DNA of 64,000 bases, taken from contig JBAZOT010000003.1 in NCBI GenBank assembly GCA_041648575.1, positions 14,895 to 78,894 on the forward strand, given 5' to 3'. The DNA comes from Patescibacteria group bacterium (GTDB taxonomy: Bacteria; Patescibacteriota; Patescibacteriia; Veblenbacterales; UBA10138). The position numbers and the translations under genes are program-made. The notes under the pieces were generated by a model. It searched no databases and was not told the DNA's origin. It saw only the letters and a list, made by a program, of their open reading frames with translations. Within the stretch, counting starts at the first letter, position 1. The number at the start of each line of letters is the position of its first letter. This document shows, piece after piece, positions 7,095-61,081 of the stretch.

Positions 7095-7250
7095 GTATAA
7101 CGTATGCGGATATGAGAAGTTGCGAAGCAATTTGGGATGAGACTCTGCAAGAGCCGAGACTCATATCCGCTGTTAGGCGAGGGTGAGCGACCAACGGGAG
7201 CGAAAGTGCAACGCCCCCTTGAGTTCAAACCTGAGCCGTCCCTCAATTTA
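7095..7250. other. GC-rich structured element (candidate ncRNA / repeat family, member A)
   Basis: Local GC is far above the genome background. Perfect 11-bp stem gcggatatgag...ctcatatccgc. Core TAGGCGAGGGTGAG...GGAGCGAAAGTG is shared with 58800..58985. The 3' end (ttaggcga...ttcaaacctgagcc) is repeated in inverted orientation at 8027..8056. Confidence 0.4.
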
Positions 7251-7982
7251 GTTTTTAACATTCTTTTGCTTGATTACAATAATTTGTCCAGTAATATGAT
7301 CTGCCTCTTTTGAAGCTAAAAACAAAGTCAAGCTTGCGACATCTTCGGATTGAAGTGCGTTATCTGGTGTAGCATCATCTGGGAAAAATTTTTTGTACGC
7401 TTCAGTTGCTACATCAGAAGGCGAAATGCAATTAACTTGAATTTGATGATTTCTAAGTTCGTGAGAAAGTCCAACCGTTAAATCTTCAATCGCTTTTTTG
7501 GACACGAAATAAGGAAGCCAACCTTTTGCGCCACTCTCGAAAGTTCCTGAAATGTTGATGATTTTACTACCTTGTTTCATTAAGGAAACGAGTTCGTGTG
7601 ATAAAATGGTTGGCGCAGTTAAACCCACTGCGTAAGTATCCAAAATTTCATCGGTTGAATAATCAGCAAATTCAATCCCTGAAAACGCTTTGTCTTTAGA
7701 GTGCCAAATACCAGCAACATTGACGAGAATATCTATTTCGCCTTCTGACTCCTTGATATTTTGAGCAAACTTTTTTATCTCATCAACACTTCTTAAGTCA
7801 ACACAAAAAATTTTTCCTTCGCTACCTGCTTCTTTAACAAGCTCAAGTGTTTTTTCTAAACCATCTTTGGAGCGAGCCAAAAGCATAGTTTTCGCACCTT
7901 CCGAAGCGAGCTTGACGGATATAGCACGACCAATGCCAATACTTGCACCTGTGATGACGGCAATTTTGTTTTTTAGCTTCAT
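7248..7982 (-). CDS. SDR-family oxidoreductase (short-chain dehydrogenase/reductase)
   Basis: TGASIGIGRA Rossmann motif and an SDR catalytic region. Codon usage is visibly more GC-rich than neighbouring genes. Confidence 0.85.
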   Translation of the reverse strand: MKLKNKIAVITGASIGIGRAISVKLASEGAKTMLLARSKDGLEKTLELVKEAGSEGKIFCVDLRSVDEIKKFAQNIKESEGEIDILVNVAGIWHSKDKAFSGIEFADYSTDEILDTYAVGLTAPTILSHELVSLMKQGSKIINISGTFESGAKGWLPYFVSKKAIEDLTVGLSHELRNHQIQVNCISPSDVATEAYKKFFPDDATPDNALQSEDVASLTLFLASKEADHITGQIIVIKQKNVKN

Positions 7983-8318
7983 AAAATTATTGTAATCATT
8001 AAGGATTTATAAAACAATCGATAGCTTGATAGGCTCAGGTTTGAATTTCGCCTAACTGGTTTATATGTGGAGTAAATGTTTAATATATGCATAAATTTGT
8101 ATGATATGTGGAATAAACTTACAAAATTATTAAATATCTAAATTCTTAACCCACCTCCGCCCTGGCTGCAGGTAAATTTTCCAACCATTTTCTTATTCGC
8201 ACGAATAAGAAAGTAGTAATCCAGGGATAACCACTTAAATACCCAACTTCTTTACCCGCCTCCGCTAAAGCTTCTGGCTTCGCTCTAGCTTAGGCGGACA
8301 ACTCGGTGGGCAGGCATT

Positions 8319-10373
<2,055 letters not shown>

Positions 10374-30649: not shown

Positions 30650-30777
30650 AGAATTATTATAACAGAACTTCGTTCTTTTGCCAGGATCTTATTTACTATA
30701 AAAATTGTGTTATACTTAAAGTAAATCTAACAAAAAGTGCCATTTTACAAATCAATACCCCTGAAAGGAGTAACGCC

Positions 30778-31488
30778 ATGACTAAAGCTCTGACTTTTAA
30801 TCGTACTACTTTTCCCCTTCTTTACCGTCGCTATTTAAGTATTGCTTTAACTATAGCAATCTTTGTACATCTTGCGGTAATTGCTGTTTATTATATTGTC
30901 TCGTCATTTACCGTTGAAGAGTCAATAGTAATGGTCAGACTAACAAAATATATCGACCTACCACCTCCACCATCAATAGATCAGGCTAATAATCCACCAA
31001 TAGTTAACTTTAATATACAAGCAACAATTGGAAAAGGGATACCCGTCCCTGTGCTTGACGCAGAAGTCAATCCCGATCAAACCATTGCTTCACAAACAGA
31101 ACTATCACAGCAAGCTAACGCCACCAGTAATATTTTAAATACTCAATCAAATGTAGAATTTATTCTTGACCAAAAAATTAATATTGAAGACGAGGAACCT
31201 CCTGATTTTGTGCCAGTAGAGAAACAACCTGTGCCTGTTAAGACTCAACAACCAGCATATCCTGAAATTGCCAGACGAGCTGGTGTGGAAGGAACTGTTT
31301 GGGTAAAAATTCTTATAGATAAAGAAGGTAAAGCTAAGAAAGCGGTAATTATTAAAAGCGATGCAGAGATATTTAATGAAGCGGCAATTCAGGCTGCACT
31401 GCAATGGGTGTTTACGCCCGCTATGATGAATAATGGTCCAGTTCAAGTATGGGCCGCTGTTCCTTTTCGTTTTAAATTAAATAAATAA
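30778..31488 (+). CDS. TonB C-terminal domain protein (energy transducer TonB family)
   Basis: N-terminal TM anchor and a Pro-rich linker. C-terminal YPEIARRAGVEGTVWVKILIDKEGK...AALQWVFTPA is the TonB_C fold signature. AGGAG SD 8 nt upstream of the start. Confidence 0.65.
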   Translation: MTKALTFNRTTFPLLYRRYLSIALTIAIFVHLAVIAVYYIVSSFTVEESIVMVRLTKYIDLPPPPSIDQANNPPIVNFNIQATIGKGIPVPVLDAEVNPDQTIASQTELSQQANATSNILNTQSNVEFILDQKINIEDEEPPDFVPVEKQPVPVKTQQPAYPEIARRAGVEGTVWVKILIDKEGKAKKAVIIKSDAEIFNEAAIQAALQWVFTPAMMNNGPVQVWAAVPFRFKLNK

Positions 31489-31527
31489 AAAAACTGCTTT
31501 GACAACATCAACTCAATAAACAAAACA

Positions 31528-31559
31528 ATCCCGTGTATTCCATCACGGGATTTTAATTT
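31528..31559 (+). terminator. Rho-independent terminator after the TonB-domain gene
   Basis: ATCCCGTG-tattccat-CACGGGAT followed by TTTAATTT. Confidence 0.6.
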
Positions 31560-31591: not shown

Positions 31592-31629
31592 TAGTCATTT
31601 TTATGTCTGGCCAGACATAAAAATGACTA
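31592..31629. repeat. 38-bp perfect palindrome (tagtcatttttatgtctgg|ccagacataaaaatgacta)
   Basis: Exact reverse-complement symmetry, no spacer. The outer 9 nt (TAGTCATTT / AAATGACTA) and the 5' flank caac are shared with the palindrome at 32712..32749. Confidence 0.7.
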
Positions 31630-31780
31630 TCCCAATTTAAAGGGGAAATGGAGAAAATTTTTGGAATAAAATACATTCGAACCGCCACGCGATTTTAAAT
31701 ACCAAAAAAGGGCCACAAAACCAACTAAAACTATTATGATTAAAAATATAAATTCCGTATTCATAACACCATTCTAGCAA

Positions 31781-31814
31781 AAAAGAAAGGGTCTGGAAAT
31801 ACAATCCCAGACCC
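31781..31814 (-). terminator. Rho-independent terminator of the secreted Cys-rich protein gene
   Basis: On the minus strand: GGGTCTGG-gattgtatt-TCCAGACCC followed by TTTCTTTTTT. Confidence 0.65.
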
Positions 31815-31843
31815 CATGAAACTACTATCTAATGGCCTTAGTG

Positions 31844-32566
31844 CTAAAACGATTGAAATGATCGGACAATCTTATCCACCCAGCTAGCCCTACGCATTAA
31901 CTCGTTAGCTATCTGCGGTGCTTGACCCTCCATTACCTTCGCCTCCTCAATCAGTATATTCCTCATCTCAACATTGGTGAGACCAGAAACATCATACCAA
32001 GCCAACGCGGTATCCAGATAAGAAATATTACCTGGTTCCATGTATCGTTCTCCAGTAACAACACTACGCATACCGTCGCTATAGAAACTGAGATACAAAT
32101 TACCAACCATCACCGCCGAGCGCGAAGCTGATACCGTATCACCGCACTTGATGTATAAGTGATAAGCATACTCTGGAAAACTCTTTCTCCCATAACCATC
32201 ATCACAATGTGGTATCCCATAGTATGTTAAGTCTGCTAGGAGTAAGCCCCACCCCTGACGTCTCTTGAACCAGTATGGATCATCACAGGAACTATCACAT
32301 ATCTGATAAATCCTTCTCACTGTGTTTACAAACTCCCAACCACAATAAAATGGGTCATCGGTCCCTGAATAACCCCCTACATCAGTCCATGAATAATTAT
32401 CTGGGTTATATCTCATACCCTCCACAATCTTATACTCGACCAGATTCTTGACCAAAGTGCGATAAGACTGTTCAGGGGACTCTTGCTTTTCCTTGGCAGG
32501 TAAAGTGTTATTTATGACTAAACCAGCCACAGCCAAAAAGATAATGATTGTAAAGTACTTTTTCAT
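31844..32566 (-). CDS. Secreted cysteine-rich hypothetical protein (signal peptide)
   Basis: N-terminal MKKYFTIIIFLAVAGLV signal peptide. 8 Cys residues. No family recognised. Flanked by the two 38-bp palindromes. Confidence 0.6.
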   Translation of the reverse strand: MKKYFTIIIFLAVAGLVINNTLPAKEKQESPEQSYRTLVKNLVEYKIVEGMRYNPDNYSWTDVGGYSGTDDPFYCGWEFVNTVRRIYQICDSSCDDPYWFKRRQGWGLLLADLTYYGIPHCDDGYGRKSFPEYAYHLYIKCGDTVSASRSAVMVGNLYLSFYSDGMRSVVTGERYMEPGNISYLDTALAWYDVSGLTNVEMRNILIEEAKVMEGQAPQIANELMRRASWVDKIVRSFQSF

Positions 32567-32651
32567 ATAACACCTGTTTATTTTTGTTTAATAAATTCCC
32601 CATTATTTGGGACTTTTTTAAAGATCTTTACTGTTTTTACAATAACAATAC

Positions 32652-32680
32652 ATAATACGGCAAACTACTTTATTTGTCAA
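32652..32680 (-). promoter_or_regulatory. Sigma70-like promoter for the secreted Cys-rich protein gene
   Basis: On the minus strand: TTGACA-N17-TATTAT, about 80 nt upstream of the ATG. AGGTG SD before the start. Confidence 0.5.
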
Positions 32681-32711
32681 TATCCATACTAAACTAGATT
32701 AAATCACCAAC

Positions 32712-32749
32712 TAGTCATTTACCCTTTCGCGCGAAAGGGTAAATGACTA
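32712..32749. repeat. 38-bp perfect palindrome (tagtcatttaccctttcgc|gcgaaagggtaaatgacta)
   Basis: Exact symmetry. Lies ~35 bp upstream of the -35 of the promoter above and downstream of arsR. Its inner half-site is reused in the imperfect site upstream of arsR. Confidence 0.7.
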
Positions 32750-32777
32750 AAGAAATAATTTATGCATAAACAGTTAA

Positions 32778-33056
32778 TTAGCTAGTCTGACGGACTTGCT
32801 TAAGAAGCTGCTGCAACAAACTACTTAACCCCTCATCTAAACTATATAGACCTACGTATCCAAATTGCCTGCGTTCTAAAAACCCCACTTGCCGCAATAG
32901 CACTAAGTGTTTAGAGGTGGACTTAAATGATAGATGAATCGCCGTCGCAACGTCACCTACTGTCCGCTCTTTACCATCGGACAACAACCTTAGTATCTCC
33001 AGCCGCTTTCTCGCACCCAGCGCCCGGTAAACCTTTTCTAACTCTCGTAGACGCAT
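32778..33056 (-). CDS. ArsR/SmtB-family HTH transcriptional regulator
   Basis: 92-aa protein. RLEILRLLSDGKERTVGDVATAIHLSFKSTSKHLVLLRQVGF is a winged-helix ArsR signature. Confidence 0.75.
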   Translation of the reverse strand: MRLRELEKVYRALGARKRLEILRLLSDGKERTVGDVATAIHLSFKSTSKHLVLLRQVGFLERRQFGYVGLYSLDEGLSSLLQQLLKQVRQTS

Positions 33057-33072
33057 GTTGGTAGTATATCAT

Positions 33073-33100
33073 ATTTACTGATTCGCGCGAAAGGGTAAAT
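33073..33100. promoter_or_regulatory. Imperfect palindrome (atttactgattcgcgcgaaagggtaaat) in the arsR promoter region; candidate autoregulatory operator
   Basis: Shares the half-site CGCGCGAAAGGGTAAAT with the perfect palindrome at 32712..32749. Sits 17 to 44 bp upstream of the arsR ATG and is nested in TGTTGGT...ACCAACA. Confidence 0.45.
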
Positions 33101-33120
33101 AATCATATAAACCAACACAT

Positions 33121-33960
33121 TTACAAACTAAATAAATTTCTCGCATTTTGAGTTGTAACCCTAGCCAGCTCGTCTAAACTTATATTTTTCAATTCAGCTA
33201 TTTTCTTTGCCACCTCCACTATATACGCCGGCTCGTTGCGGGTGCCCCGATAAGCTTGGGGGGCCAGATACGGCGCGTCTGTTTCTACCATTATCCTATC
33301 AATTGGAGTTTCTTTTACTACTTTTAACAATCCCGGACTGGCATTTTTAAAAGTAATAATTCCGGTAAACGATAATAAAAATCCTAAATCTAAAAATTGT
33401 TTAGCTTGCTCTTGGGTACCTAAAAAACAATGAGCCACGCCCTTTTTTGATAATCTACCTTTGTCTAATTCTTGTTTTAAAATCATCAACAAATCATCAT
33501 AAGCTTCACGGCAATGAATAATAACAGGTAAATTAAGTTCGTCGGCTAAAGTAATATGCTGCCTAAACAATTCTTGTTGCTTTGTTTTAACTTCTGTCTT
33601 ATCAACGCCATCTGGAAAACGATAATAATCCAATCCACACTCCCCTATGGCTACCACTTTACTACCAGAACCACGTGCTAAAGCAGAATATCTTGATGGA
33701 TTAAAAACCTCGGCCCGAGTTTTAAAATAAATTTCTTCCTCATCCACTTCTTGCTCAAATAAATGAATGGGATGAAGCCCAATCGCGGCATATAAATTAT
33801 CATGTTCCTGTGCTAATTTTACTGCCCGCTCCGATGTGTCCCATTGACTGCCAAGATTAATAATACAAGTCACACCAGCACGATGAGCTCGTTTAATTAC
33901 CTCATCAGTATCATTCTTAAACGCATTAAAATTCAAATGGCAGTGAGTATCAATCAACAT
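33121..33960 (-). CDS. tatD: TatD-family metal-dependent hydrolase/DNase
   Basis: LIDTHCHL N-terminus and the conserved His/Glu/Asp ligand pattern. Confidence 0.9.
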   Translation of the reverse strand: MLIDTHCHLNFNAFKNDTDEVIKRAHRAGVTCIINLGSQWDTSERAVKLAQEHDNLYAAIGLHPIHLFEQEVDEEEIYFKTRAEVFNPSRYSALARGSGSKVVAIGECGLDYYRFPDGVDKTEVKTKQQELFRQHITLADELNLPVIIHCREAYDDLLMILKQELDKGRLSKKGVAHCFLGTQEQAKQFLDLGFLLSFTGIITFKNASPGLLKVVKETPIDRIMVETDAPYLAPQAYRGTRNEPAYIVEVAKKIAELKNISLDELARVTTQNARNLFSL

Positions 33961-60698: not shown

Positions 60699-61081
60699 TG
60701 GTGGAGATGGCGGGAATTACACCCGCGTCTAAGACAATTAACTTTACCCTTCTACAAACTTAGTCTGATTAATTTTGACAGAAGTCAAATCAGACCAAAG
60801 CCCCTGTCAATCTGTCCTAAGTAATGTCGGCCTAAGCACTAGAACAATACTTAAACCCTGCTCGATAAATGACGCTCTATAAGACTATCGAGATCGTCTA
60901 ATAGAACGGCCTCTGCTTAAATTAAGCAAAAGCTGGTGCTAGTGTCAAAGTGCTAAAAGCAGCTTTGGCGCGAGCTACAAATGATTTGGCATTTGTGAAG
61001 TGTGATGCTTTTATTACGCAGACACATCAACTGCGGTCTGCCAGACAAAGATCACTGCCTTATCGATTGTTAAACATCCCC
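60699..61081 (-). ncRNA. ssrA: tmRNA (ssrA)
   Basis: The minus strand begins GGGGAUGUUUAACAAUCGAUAAGG. The 3' end is GACGCGGG-UGUAAUU-CCCGC-CAUCUCC-A-CCA. This gives a 7-bp acceptor stem (GGGGAUG/CAUCUCC) with a G3.U pair, and the CCA is encoded. An internal tag ORF reads ...AKSFVARAKAAFSTLTLAPAFA*. The RNA lies 86 nt downstream of smpB. The T-loop is atypical (UGUAAUU). Confidence 0.7.

Follow-up and report, generated by a model that had tools for sequence, protein, structure and literature searches.

CzrA and SmtB, two autoregulated repressors of the ArsR/SmtB family, bind 12-2-12 inverted repeats over their own promoters. HlyU, SdpR, BigR and PagR represent non-metal ArsR-type proteins, small members of the same fold without the classic metal sites, of which BigR and HlyU rely on cysteines. 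For Patescibacteria, descriptions of transcription-factor sites are, to our knowledge, almost lacking. The locus presented here, located in a window of 64 kb (the whole stretch of DNA that was analysed), provides a concrete candidate operator, and the layout of the promoter, of an ArsR-type regulator that is conserved in these uncultivated bacteria and contains no cysteine.

The locus carries three palindromes, P1, P2 and P3, which a previous sequence-only reading had assigned to a single family. The three palindromes are two different things: P3 and P2 form an operator pair of the predicted ArsR type (O1 and O2, respectively), and P1 belongs to a separate family, whose relatives occur elsewhere. 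The combination of this operator pair, an unrelated P1 palindrome and a recently inserted island is probably the correct description of the region. It makes the locus mostly a case of ordinary autoregulation and horizontal transfer, the main features of which are ordinary and leave current understanding in place. The features, with their coordinates in the window, are the following:

31527 to 31552, plus strand: intrinsic terminator of tonB, conserved in loci L056 and L057
31592 to 31629, no strand: P1, not an ArsR site, a palindrome of a separate family in which arms of 16 bp (TAGTCATTTTTATGTC) enclose a free 6-bp centre
31627 to 31764, minus strand: 5' fragment of rmuC, truncated beside P1, its first 26 codons 69% identical to the resident RmuC
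31771 to 31815, minus strand: terminator hairpin (31815-31788) and fossil rmuC promoter (TTTCCA-17-TAGAAT), which apparently came in with the island
31844 to 32566, minus strand: orphan gene for a predicted secreted all-alpha protein of 240 aa with five cysteines
32652 to 32680, minus strand: predicted promoter of the orphan gene (TTGACA-17-TATTAT), 11 of 12 matches to the consensus
32712 to 32749, no strand: P2, or O2, a perfect palindrome 29 bp 3' of the arsR stop
32778 to 33056, minus strand: arsR, encoding a 92-aa ArsR/SmtB-type winged-helix regulator with no cysteine and two histidines
33063 to 33068, minus strand: predicted arsR -10 hexamer TATACT, exactly 6 nt 5' of the ATG
33072 to 33101, minus strand: P3, or O1, the predicted promoter-proximal ArsR-type operator, with the halves ATTTACCCTTTCGCG and CGAATCAGTAAAT and a conserved 3-nt asymmetry (CCT vs TGA)
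33121 to 33332, minus strand: 3' end of tatD, a putative imported homologous-anchor tract, ~76% identical to L056 (98% in the part of tatD beyond it, starting at 33333)

Specifically, P1 (31592-31629, TAGTCATTTTTATGTCTGGCCAGACATAAAAATGACTA) and P2 (32712-32749, TAGTCATTTACCCTTTCGCGCGAAAGGGTAAATGACTA) are both perfect palindromes of 38 bp which, as originally noticed, have the outer 9 bp of their arms in common and are preceded alike by caac on the plus strand. In the 64-kb window, the pattern TAGTCATTT-N20-AAATGACTA is matched by these two sites only, even allowing up to three mismatches, with 0.07 matches expected. Besides P1 and P2, only one other zero-spacer palindrome with arms of at least 13 nt was found window-wide, at 8187-8214. 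The imperfect copy of the P2 half-site reported 5' of arsR is indeed present as P3 (33072-33101), which shares TTCGCGCGAAAGGGTAAAT with P2 and lies 16-45 bp 5' of the arsR start (33056). Single-strand folding of P1 and P2 gave energies of -21 to -27 kcal/mol (z = -6 to -8). Comparison of the region with known RNA families returned only sub-threshold microRNA-hairpin noise, and a full-text literature search for the motif strings gave no match.

The arsR product is, by its sequence, a winged helix-turn-helix protein of the HTH_5 type (Pfam PF01022, E = 7e-8, 32.6 bits vs a 22-bit cut-off), which places it in the ArsR/SmtB family, and its best match among solved structures is CzrA (1r1u, E = 6e-7). 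The NCBIfam model of the metalloregulator subfamily (HTH_metalloreg) assigns it 52 bits, just under the cut-off of 55 bits. In the alignment, the metal and metalloid sites (alpha-3 CXC, alpha-3N, and the alpha-5 His/Asp/Glu cluster) are absent from the protein, and both histidines fall in the helix-turn-helix. With no cysteine and only two histidines, the regulator is therefore not a classical metal sensor, and the metal or redox sensing previously proposed for it is unlikely. Its weaker matches include structures of HlyU and the model of the SdpR family. The protein resembles HlyU, SdpR, BigR and PagR in its small ArsR fold without classic metal sites, but its scores are far under the cut-offs of both SdpR (37.5 vs 100) and BigR (16 vs 155) and, unlike BigR and HlyU, it has no cysteine to rely on. 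No conserved partner gene adjoins arsR. The 6-nt spacing between TATACT and the ATG is repeated, as judged by eye, in homologous loci and, together with the lack of a Shine-Dalgarno sequence, leads us to infer that the arsR mRNA is leaderless.

By comparing homologous arsR loci of Patescibacteria (45-87% protein identity), it appears that P3 and P2 are a conserved pair of predicted operators, with the core TTCGCGCGAA, bracketing the cysteine-free arsR. The predicted half-site is TTTAC-N3-TTCGCG and the full site TTTAC-N3-TTCGCGCGAA-N3-GTAAA, that is, TTTAC-N3-TTCGCG joined to CGCGAA-N3-GTAAA. Both the core and the recognition helix are invariant across the homologous loci, the latter reading LS.KSTSKH in 10 ArsR homologues. 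The centre of O1 maps 30-34 bp 5' of the ATG in nine of 10 arsR loci and 53 bp 5' of it in the most distant one (L020). The O1 core doubles as the predicted arsR -35 (TTCGCG), 17 bp from the -10. With its dyad in this position and its core serving as -35, the putative inverted repeat lies over the promoter of its own gene, as in ArsR/SmtB operators. Positions 13-15 and 26-28 of O1 are unpaired in eight of nine sequences.

On the other side of the gene, an O2-type TTCGCGCGAA element is found 23-67 bp 3' of the arsR stop in every homologous locus with sequence there, and in most of these loci it is a perfect or near-perfect palindrome of 26-34 bp. Among the loci with sequence on both sides (L005 ends inside its own O2), O1 and an O2-type element flank arsR in L006, L007-9, L010-12, L013-15, L016-17, L019 and L020, whatever the neighbouring genes. 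The comparison of arsR neighbourhoods suggested by the earlier reading has yielded a recurring O1/O2 pair and no recurring orphan gene. In addition, the O2 arms covary, with 13 of 19 pairs changed on both sides and 93% of cells paired, values that were reached in none of 500 shuffles. In P2, the inner 28 bp correspond to the conserved ArsR-type site, and the outer TAGTC/GACTA arms and the GTTG tail, found in this genome only, are those of P1. The O2 sites of the homologous loci are not followed by a consistent T-tract, so any role as a hairpin would not be that of a canonical terminator.

The proposed autoregulation through ArsR-type inverted repeats is thus supported for P3 and P2, as predicted sites kept beside arsR homologues in all lineages examined, and not for P1, which is no such site. 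An ArsR dimer bound to O1, over the -35 and the spacer, would shut off its own gene. O2, a copy of higher symmetry just 3' of the stop, is most likely a second operator, and its transcript or DNA hairpin may also mark the end of the arsR unit. This architecture is similar to that of CzrA and SmtB in the HTH_5 winged helix predicted from sequence, in the dyad over the repressor's own -35 and spacer, and in the general arrangement of a small dimeric repressor. It differs in the lack of metal ligands (no cysteine, no alpha-5 His/Asp cluster), in a site of 14+14 bp with the invariant GC-rich centre TTCGCGCGAA, in the second palindromic copy just 3' of the arsR stop, and in the apparently leaderless mRNA.

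The operator pair belongs to a segment of about 1.7 kb, from ~31630 to 33332, which is a recent insertion as judged by sequence comparison. This island comprises the tatD 3' tract, O1, arsR, O2, the orphan gene, the terminator and the rmuC 5' fragment. The relative L056 is without the island: identity to it is 93% over atp-rmuC-tonB and 98% in tatD beyond the island (33333 onward), and its tonB-tatD spacer measures only 117 bp; L057 shows the same gene order, with a P1-like palindrome at the same position after tonB. The GC content of 33121-33332 is 0.42, compared to 0.36 in the remaining tatD, and that of arsR and the orphan gene is 0.43-0.47, compared to 0.37 window-wide. In addition, the homologous counterpart of 31771-31815 in L007 lies upstream of rmuC, and the rmuC fragment, with its upstream promoter and terminator, matches the L007 arrangement. 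Searches of plasmid, phage and viral collections with the island and with the two palindrome motifs gave no match, and a phage or plasmid origin was discarded on these grounds.

One end of the island maps to a homologous crossover inside tatD (~33333-33369), and the other to a joint within 0-45 bp of P1. The suggestion that the palindromes are the ends of a mobile cassette is therefore correct in so far as the region is an inserted island, and incorrect as to its ends, which lie elsewhere. We propose that the island was imported from a donor lineage with the gene order tatD-arsR-O2-X-rmuC, one end arising by homologous crossover in tatD. The other would be an illegitimate joint formed within the tatD-tonB spacer; as this spacer is short, the island would end beside P1. 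Such an event would correspond to homology-facilitated illegitimate recombination, a process of natural transformation known from Acinetobacter and Streptococcus. As in that process, one end of the foreign tract is homologous (tatD) and the other illegitimate, and a truncated duplicate of a neighbouring gene, here the rmuC fragment, is left behind; in contrast to the Acinetobacter and Streptococcus cases, the mechanism is deduced here from sequence alone. Read in this way, the locus shows at single-base detail how 1.7 kb were recently gained, one end being homologous and the other illegitimate, and would be direct evidence for how such small genomes gain orphan genes.

The orphan protein matches only itself among 5.8e9 proteins, shows three weak matches among 1.8e9 representatives, and belongs to no Pfam or NCBIfam family. 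Its AlphaFold2 model is helical, of the helical-repeat kind (pLDDT 72), and a PDB fold search with this model returned no significant match. The eight cysteines formerly attributed to the secreted protein are in fact five, none of which is conserved in the three remote homologues, and a Cys-rich motif was accordingly rejected. The near-consensus promoter (32680-32652) and the terminator (hairpin 31815-31788) attributed to the gene are both present on the minus strand, with a leader of ~75 nt and an AGGTG ribosome-binding site. The gene is absent from all the other arsR loci and from the closest relatives. The P2 centre maps ~86 bp upstream of the transcription start predicted for the gene, a distance that would allow P2 to regulate it; the orphan gene occupies a variable slot, and its control by ArsR is not supported.

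P1 contains neither the TTCGCGCGAA core nor the TTTAC-N3-TTCGCG half-site. It follows the pattern TAGTCATTTTTATGTC-N6-GACATAAAAATGACTA, in which the arms are invariant and the 6-bp centre is variable, and whose members occur in unrelated contexts, on contigs of ~35-58% GC. L050 contains a 38-mer identical to P1, and L028 and L052-L055 contain near-identical copies, on contigs of 48-58% GC, all with unrelated flanks. These data point to a second family of palindromes, 38-44 bp long, which is kept in genomes that differ widely in GC content. P1 is a resident intergenic palindrome that follows the terminator of tonB, where the convergent tatD operon ends, and might, most likely, be the target of a sequence-specific dimeric protein. 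A mobile element or a recombination site could equally have invariant arms over a wide GC range and unrelated flanks. A PaaX-like gene (L028) and TrmB-like genes (L053, L055) neighbour some P1-type sites; both types of regulator were rejected as users of P1, as the window contains no gene of either type and they are not placed alike with respect to the P1-type sites. An IS end was likewise discarded, since the inverted repeats of the IS982-like element near the L054 site are different ones, ~110 bp from the site. The genome-wide search recommended by the earlier reading, for TAGTCATTT-N20-AAATGACTA, produced no general family, since 28 of the 30 loci recovered from 596 Gb of genomes were chance matches, including four unrelated perfect palindromes (Bacteroidetes, Bacillus, Kangiella, Oligoflexus) without common neighbours.

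Against this background, it is highly improbable that all three palindromes are operators of one ArsR in a small metal or redox regulon of arsR and the secreted protein. P2 and P3 do have the ArsR core in common, P2 lies between arsR and the orphan-gene promoter, P1 and P2 share the 9 bp of outer arm, and sites with the same core at other genes (O3 in L013, where O2 and O3 surround rmuC, and a site at 4299 in L020) indicate that small regulons exist. However, P1 is devoid of core and half-site, its family occurs at seven other loci with neither arsR nor the ArsR core nearby, P1 lies downstream of every surrounding transcription unit, the regulator has no cysteine and two histidines, and the orphan gene is missing from the other arsR loci and the closest relatives. 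We also consider very unlikely that P1 and P2 are recombination sites of a secreted-gene cassette (attC-like, dif/pdif-like or hairpin-transposon ends), with the shared arms and GTTG as the recombinase core. The sites of attC systems and of pdif modules or dif-integrating elements are likewise palindromic, with conserved outer and variable inner parts, and flank single genes. Here P1 and P2 carry, on the same edge, the direct repeat AAATGACTAGTTG of 13 bp, and the invariant arms with a variable 6-bp centre resemble tyrosine-recombinase core sites. Palindrome-bracketed genes recur, as in L053, where two P1-type sites surround an 860-bp insert (a site duplication as in attC/pdif systems), and in L013, with O2 and O3 around rmuC; moreover, L010 and L011 diverge inside O1. 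On the other hand, the bracketed P2-P1 segment holds the 5' fragment of rmuC together with the terminator and the promoter that belong to it, that is, a piece of a relative's chromosome and no discrete cassette, and the island runs past P2 through arsR into tatD. A tblastn search of the window found no tyrosine recombinase or transposase: as a test for an IntI-type recombinase, two tyrosine recombinases (L006, L019) gave only fragments with E of at least 0.02, and an IS982-like query gave no transposase. An integron was thus rejected, there being no integrase in the window and, unlike attC and pdif sites, no R/L core boxes, no inverted RYYYAAC/GTTRRRY pair and no extrahelical bases in P1 and P2, which are perfect palindromes with CAAC/GTTG on one side only. 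Other members of the P1 family lack the GTTG flank, and the plasmid, phage and viral collections hold no similar sequence. The features of the P1 family (invariant 16-bp arms, free 6-bp centre, one match per representative MAG) would be seen alike at a dif site and at the site of a dimeric transcription factor; a terminus dif was excluded by the monotonic GC skew, which shows no switch and is negative in 32 of 32 two-kb bins, and by gene orientation, as nearly all genes to either side of P1 lie on the minus strand.

Dispersed REP/MITE-like repeats without regulatory information are a scarcely plausible explanation. The copy identical to P1 in L050 and the near-identical ones, amid unrelated flanks, suggest spread and not vertical descent, but the copy number is low, with one P1 and one P2 in the 64-kb window, one match to the pattern per GTDB representative MAG carrying it and one or two per metagenome contig. 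This is at odds with the many-copy occurrence that the earlier reading had considered. In addition, no target-site duplications are visible, and the linkage of P2 and P3 to arsR is strict, each at a fixed distance from the gene. Unlikely, though far from negligible, is the possibility that P1 and P2 are mere transcript-end hairpins, of the tatD operon and of arsR, respectively, with a symmetry produced by quasipalindrome correction and no protein recognition. The strong folds would agree with this, as would the T-rich tails on the tatD strand of the palindromes at the P1 position in L056 and L057, and the fact that O2 is always 3' of the arsR stop and symmetric even where O1 is not. The intrinsic-terminator scan, however, calls the tonB hairpin and the one upstream of the rmuC fragment, and neither P1 nor P2, which have no T-tracts; T-rich tails are lacking in other P1-family and O2 members, and some P1-type sites are upstream of genes (L028, L052). 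Moreover, an element under structural constraint only should drift, yet no variation is seen in the arms of P1, and O1 and O2 have the same core. Distinctly unlikely, finally, is that P1-type palindromes are dedicated recombination or breakage hot spots for DNA uptake and duplication in Patescibacteria, with P2 a chimera of ArsR operator and P1 site, and O1-arsR-O2 a relocating palindrome-bounded module.

Beside the operator pair, the separate P1 palindrome and the island, the P1-like outer arms of P2 deserve mention. CATTT is frequent in the O2 sites of other lineages too, so the genome-specific identity of P1 and P2 is reduced to TAGT, mirrored on the other arm, and the one-sided GTTG tail, for which the probability of chance occurrence is ~1e-5. 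This extra identity is not explained by the island, and points to a possible functional or mechanistic link between P1 and P2. No single-step recombination giving the observed arrangement could be derived. In the simplest explanation, which is speculative, sequence may have been transferred between an O2 site and a P1-type palindrome via their common CATTT/AAATG, and template switching at the quasipalindrome might then have made the P2 arms symmetric. We know of no demonstration of quasipalindrome correction in these organisms. It would explain neither the asymmetry kept by O1 nor the first source of the P1-like arm of P2. As a mechanism of mutation, template switching at quasipalindromes is well established (PMC7202029); it would provide a way for one P2 arm to be copied from the other, and it would account for the perfect symmetry that O2 and P1 keep as their sequence changes from one lineage to the next.

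P1 (31592-31629) and P2 (32712-32749) are indeed perfect palindromes of 38 bp, and P3 (33072-33101) is an imperfect palindrome having 19 nt in common with P2. Both P1 and P2 fold far better than shuffled sequence, and they are the sole matches to TAGTCATTT-N20-AAATGACTA in 64 kb at a tolerance of up to three mismatches, where 0.07 would be expected. The promoter (TTGACA-17-TATTAT) was confirmed, as was a hairpin resembling a terminator. These observations of the sequence-only reading stand, and its proposal of arsR autoregulation through P3 and P2 finds support in comparative data, while its claims on P1 kinship, metal or redox sensing, an 8-Cys protein and cassette ends do not hold. All together, the main features of the region are an ArsR-type repressor that probably acts on its own gene, its two conserved operators, and the small, horizontally acquired island in which they lie. 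The regulator gene is the following:

32778-33056, minus strand: arsR, encoding a 92-aa winged-helix protein of the ArsR/SmtB type (Pfam HTH_5; the best-matching relative of solved structure is CzrA)

The arsR product contains no cysteine and two histidines, which argues against a metal or redox sensor. About twenty homologues were found (45-87% identity), all in groundwater-type metagenomes, and the DNA neighbourhoods around eight of them were compared. In every locus compared, arsR is bracketed by one site before its start (O1, P3 in the window) and another after its stop (O2, P2 in the window). Specifically, O1 carries a TTCGCGCGAA core, centred 30-34 bp ahead of the ATG or, in the remotest homologue, 53 bp ahead of it, and is followed by a -10-like hexamer exactly 6 nt ahead of the ATG, without a Shine-Dalgarno sequence; from this arrangement we infer that the arsR mRNA is leaderless. 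O2 maps 23-67 bp past the stop codon and shares the core of O1; in most loci it forms a palindrome of 26-38 bp, perfect or nearly so, the element being interrupted in loci L010-L012. The genes beside arsR vary by locus (tatD/rmuC, folD/integrase, murC or histidine kinase/161-aa ORF, and others); the invariant elements are the operator core, with the half-site TTTAC-N3-TTCGCG in both variants, and the recognition helix LS.KSTSKH.

The O2 arms show changes on both sides in 13 of 19 pairs, with 93% of cells paired, a level reached by none of 500 shuffles, whereas O1 has a 3-nt asymmetry (CCT vs TGA) fixed in eight of nine lineages. Given this difference, O2 is under an extra symmetry constraint, or subject to symmetric correction. 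In conclusion, the conservation of O1 and O2 around the homologues supports P3 as the predicted autoregulatory operator of arsR and P2 as its conserved downstream operator or hairpin, binding at both being likewise predicted. In addition, the arsR family probably runs small regulons, since the core recurs in sites beside other genes, one past the end of rmuC in L013-15 and one ahead of a 234-aa ORF in L020.

The window also contains the palindrome ACCATTTTCTTATTCGCACGAATAAGAAAGTAGT (8187-8214), located between gyrB (8319-10364, minus) and a short-chain dehydrogenase gene (7248-7982, minus); its core is of the ArsR type apart from a single mismatch, its half-sites are similar, and it may be a further ArsR site. 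Hexamers of the -10 type exactly 6 nt from the ATG, without Shine-Dalgarno sequence, were observed at arsR of several lineages and at rmuC (33063-33068, 31771-31776 and 30656-30661, and loci L005-L019), and leaderless mRNAs appear to be common in the window and these loci.

The orphan gene between P1 and P2 (31844-32566, minus) encodes a 240-aa secreted protein with five cysteines, where eight had been counted. Among 5.8 billion proteins its sole match is itself; when 1.8 billion representatives were searched in full with HMMER, three weak matches came up, none sharing a cysteine with it. Its N-terminus holds a hydrophobic segment, and the predicted structure is all-alpha and helical-repeat-like (pLDDT 72), with no significant PDB match. 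Unlike arsR and rmuC, the gene is preceded by a leader, about 75 nt long, in which AGGTG forms the ribosome-binding site. P2 lies upstream, its centre about 86 bp from the predicted start of the gene, and the proposed ArsR control of this gene is possible but unsupported.

As for P1, regarded earlier as a sibling of P2 and P3, it lacks the ArsR core, and both arsR and this core are absent from all P1-family loci found, which argues against that kinship. When one genome per species (596 Gb in all) was scanned with the outer arms common to P1 and P2, 30 loci came up, 28 of them background; four of these 28 are perfect palindromes from other phyla, unrelated to P1. The two relevant ones are L050, where a copy identical at 38/38 positions follows mfd-dprA in unrelated flanks, and L028, a Patescibacteria MAG in which a near-copy precedes a PaaX-like gene by 11 bp. 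The P1-type loci L052 to L055 came from JGI metagenomes, scanned with a relaxed pattern. The family follows the pattern TAGTCATTTTTATGTC-N6-GACATAAAAATGACTA, in which the 16-bp arms are invariant, save one or two positions in a few members, and the centre is free (TGGCCA, CAGCTG, CAGCTA, TAACTA or TAGGTG). Members have unrelated flanks and occur in one or two copies per contig, the metagenome contigs carrying them having a GC content of 48-58%, compared to 37% for the window. Because the sequence itself is conserved, beyond pairing alone, we favour a sequence-specific dimeric protein site rather than a pure hairpin for P1. No relatives were found in the viral contigs, phages or plasmids searched, and the family has neither an Rfam entry nor any mention that we found in the literature. 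A location of P1 at a GC-skew switch was rejected, no switch being present at the site, as was a role of the L054 site as the end of a nearby IS. On contig L051 (62% GC), the half-site GACAGAAAAATG occurs at 590-670 as one inverted pair and three direct 15-bp repeats, just past an ECF-sigma-like ORF; the arrangement is iteron-like, and its kinship with the P1 family is uncertain.

Two syntenic relatives, L056 and L057, were reached through the closest tonB homologues. Between L056 and the window, identity is 93% over atp-rmuC-tonB; in tatD it is about 76% over 33121-33332 and 98% from 33333 onward. The tonB-tatD spacer of L056 measures just 117 bp and contains neither arsR nor the orphan gene. 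L057 has the same gene order as the window and, after the tonB terminator, a 44-bp perfect palindrome with the inner core of P1, from which it differs in that 2 bp are symmetrically deleted and each arm has G in place of a C; P1 is thus the resident palindrome of the tonB-tatD spacer. The GC content of arsR and the orphan gene is 0.43-0.47, against 0.37 for the window. In addition, a 45-codon ORF (31627-31764, minus) duplicates the 5' end of rmuC, is about equally similar to L007 and to the resident rmuC, and brings with it the terminator and leaderless promoter found ahead of rmuC in L007. Loci L007-9 and L013-15 show the order tatD-arsR-O2-(0-250 bp)-rmuC, without tonB.

Judging from these comparisons, the DNA between the palindromes is a recent island. 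In its simplest history, a tatD-arsR-O2-X-rmuC lineage would have supplied about 1.7 kb of DNA, with a homologous crossover inside tatD at one end and an illegitimate joint in the short spacer holding P1 at the other; no donor genome was found. Homology-facilitated illegitimate recombination is a known pattern that the two ends match. Such ends speak against the palindromes as termini of a mobile cassette, and a joint beside P1 is expected from geometry alone, since the spacer is just about 120-160 bp long.

CATTT at the P1-equivalent position is already found in O2 sites of several lineages. In this genome alone, O2 further agrees with P1 in TAGT, whose mirror image stands on the opposite arm, and in the GTTG tail on one side, a coincidence between P1 and P2 of roughly 1e-5 by chance. 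A suggested route begins with an O2 site and a P1-type palindrome joined through microhomology (AAATG); quasipalindrome template switching, a mechanism reviewed in PMC7202029, would then copy one P2 arm onto the other. No single event giving the present P1/P2 arrangement could be derived.

The reading of the palindromes as recombination hot spots has a low probability; what keeps it alive is the recurrence of palindrome-bracketed genes. In L053 (780-2126), a stretch of about 270 bp, in which a P1-type palindrome has the 3' ends of a TrmB-like gene and the trigger-factor gene on either side, is present twice (71% identity); between the copies lies an 860-bp insert with a 101-aa membrane-protein gene that has its own promoter. 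In L013, O2 and O3 surround rmuC, and in L013, L014 and L015 three near-identical 32-bp palindromes (CCATTTACCCTTTCGCGCGAAAGGGTAAATGG; L013 at 3487, 3820 and 4985) bracket both arsR and the rmuC gene next to it, whose product has been implicated in restricting inversions at short inverted repeats. Finally, L010 (5955) and L011 (5159) carry an identical arsR module, with the same protein and identical DNA from the O1 core onward, behind murC or a histidine-kinase gene (one contig each), the homology beginning inside the O1 left arm.

The Logan assemblies of SRR8449827 break exactly inside P2 and P1 (L002 at its end, L004 at both ends). Such assemblies are probably fragmented by perfect palindromes that exceed the k-mer size in length, and similar sites may therefore often vanish at contig ends. 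In an Oligoflexus MAG (L046, 3041-6904), a 511-aa ORF occurs twice, in inverted orientation, on the two sides of a perfect palindrome of 54 bp; this is a large inverted duplication or else an artefact of assembly.

The tonB-like gene (30778-31488, plus) has three Patescibacteria relatives only (84, 70 and 69% identity); among the roughly 115 other homologues listed, nearly all those whose source is named are TonB proteins of Ignavibacteria or Bacteroidota (55-67% identity). This looks like an inter-phylum transfer of an outer-membrane energy transducer into the Patescibacteria lineage, which is usually thought to have no outer membrane. The sole Rfam match at the gathering threshold in the window is a tmRNA gene (60699-61081, minus).
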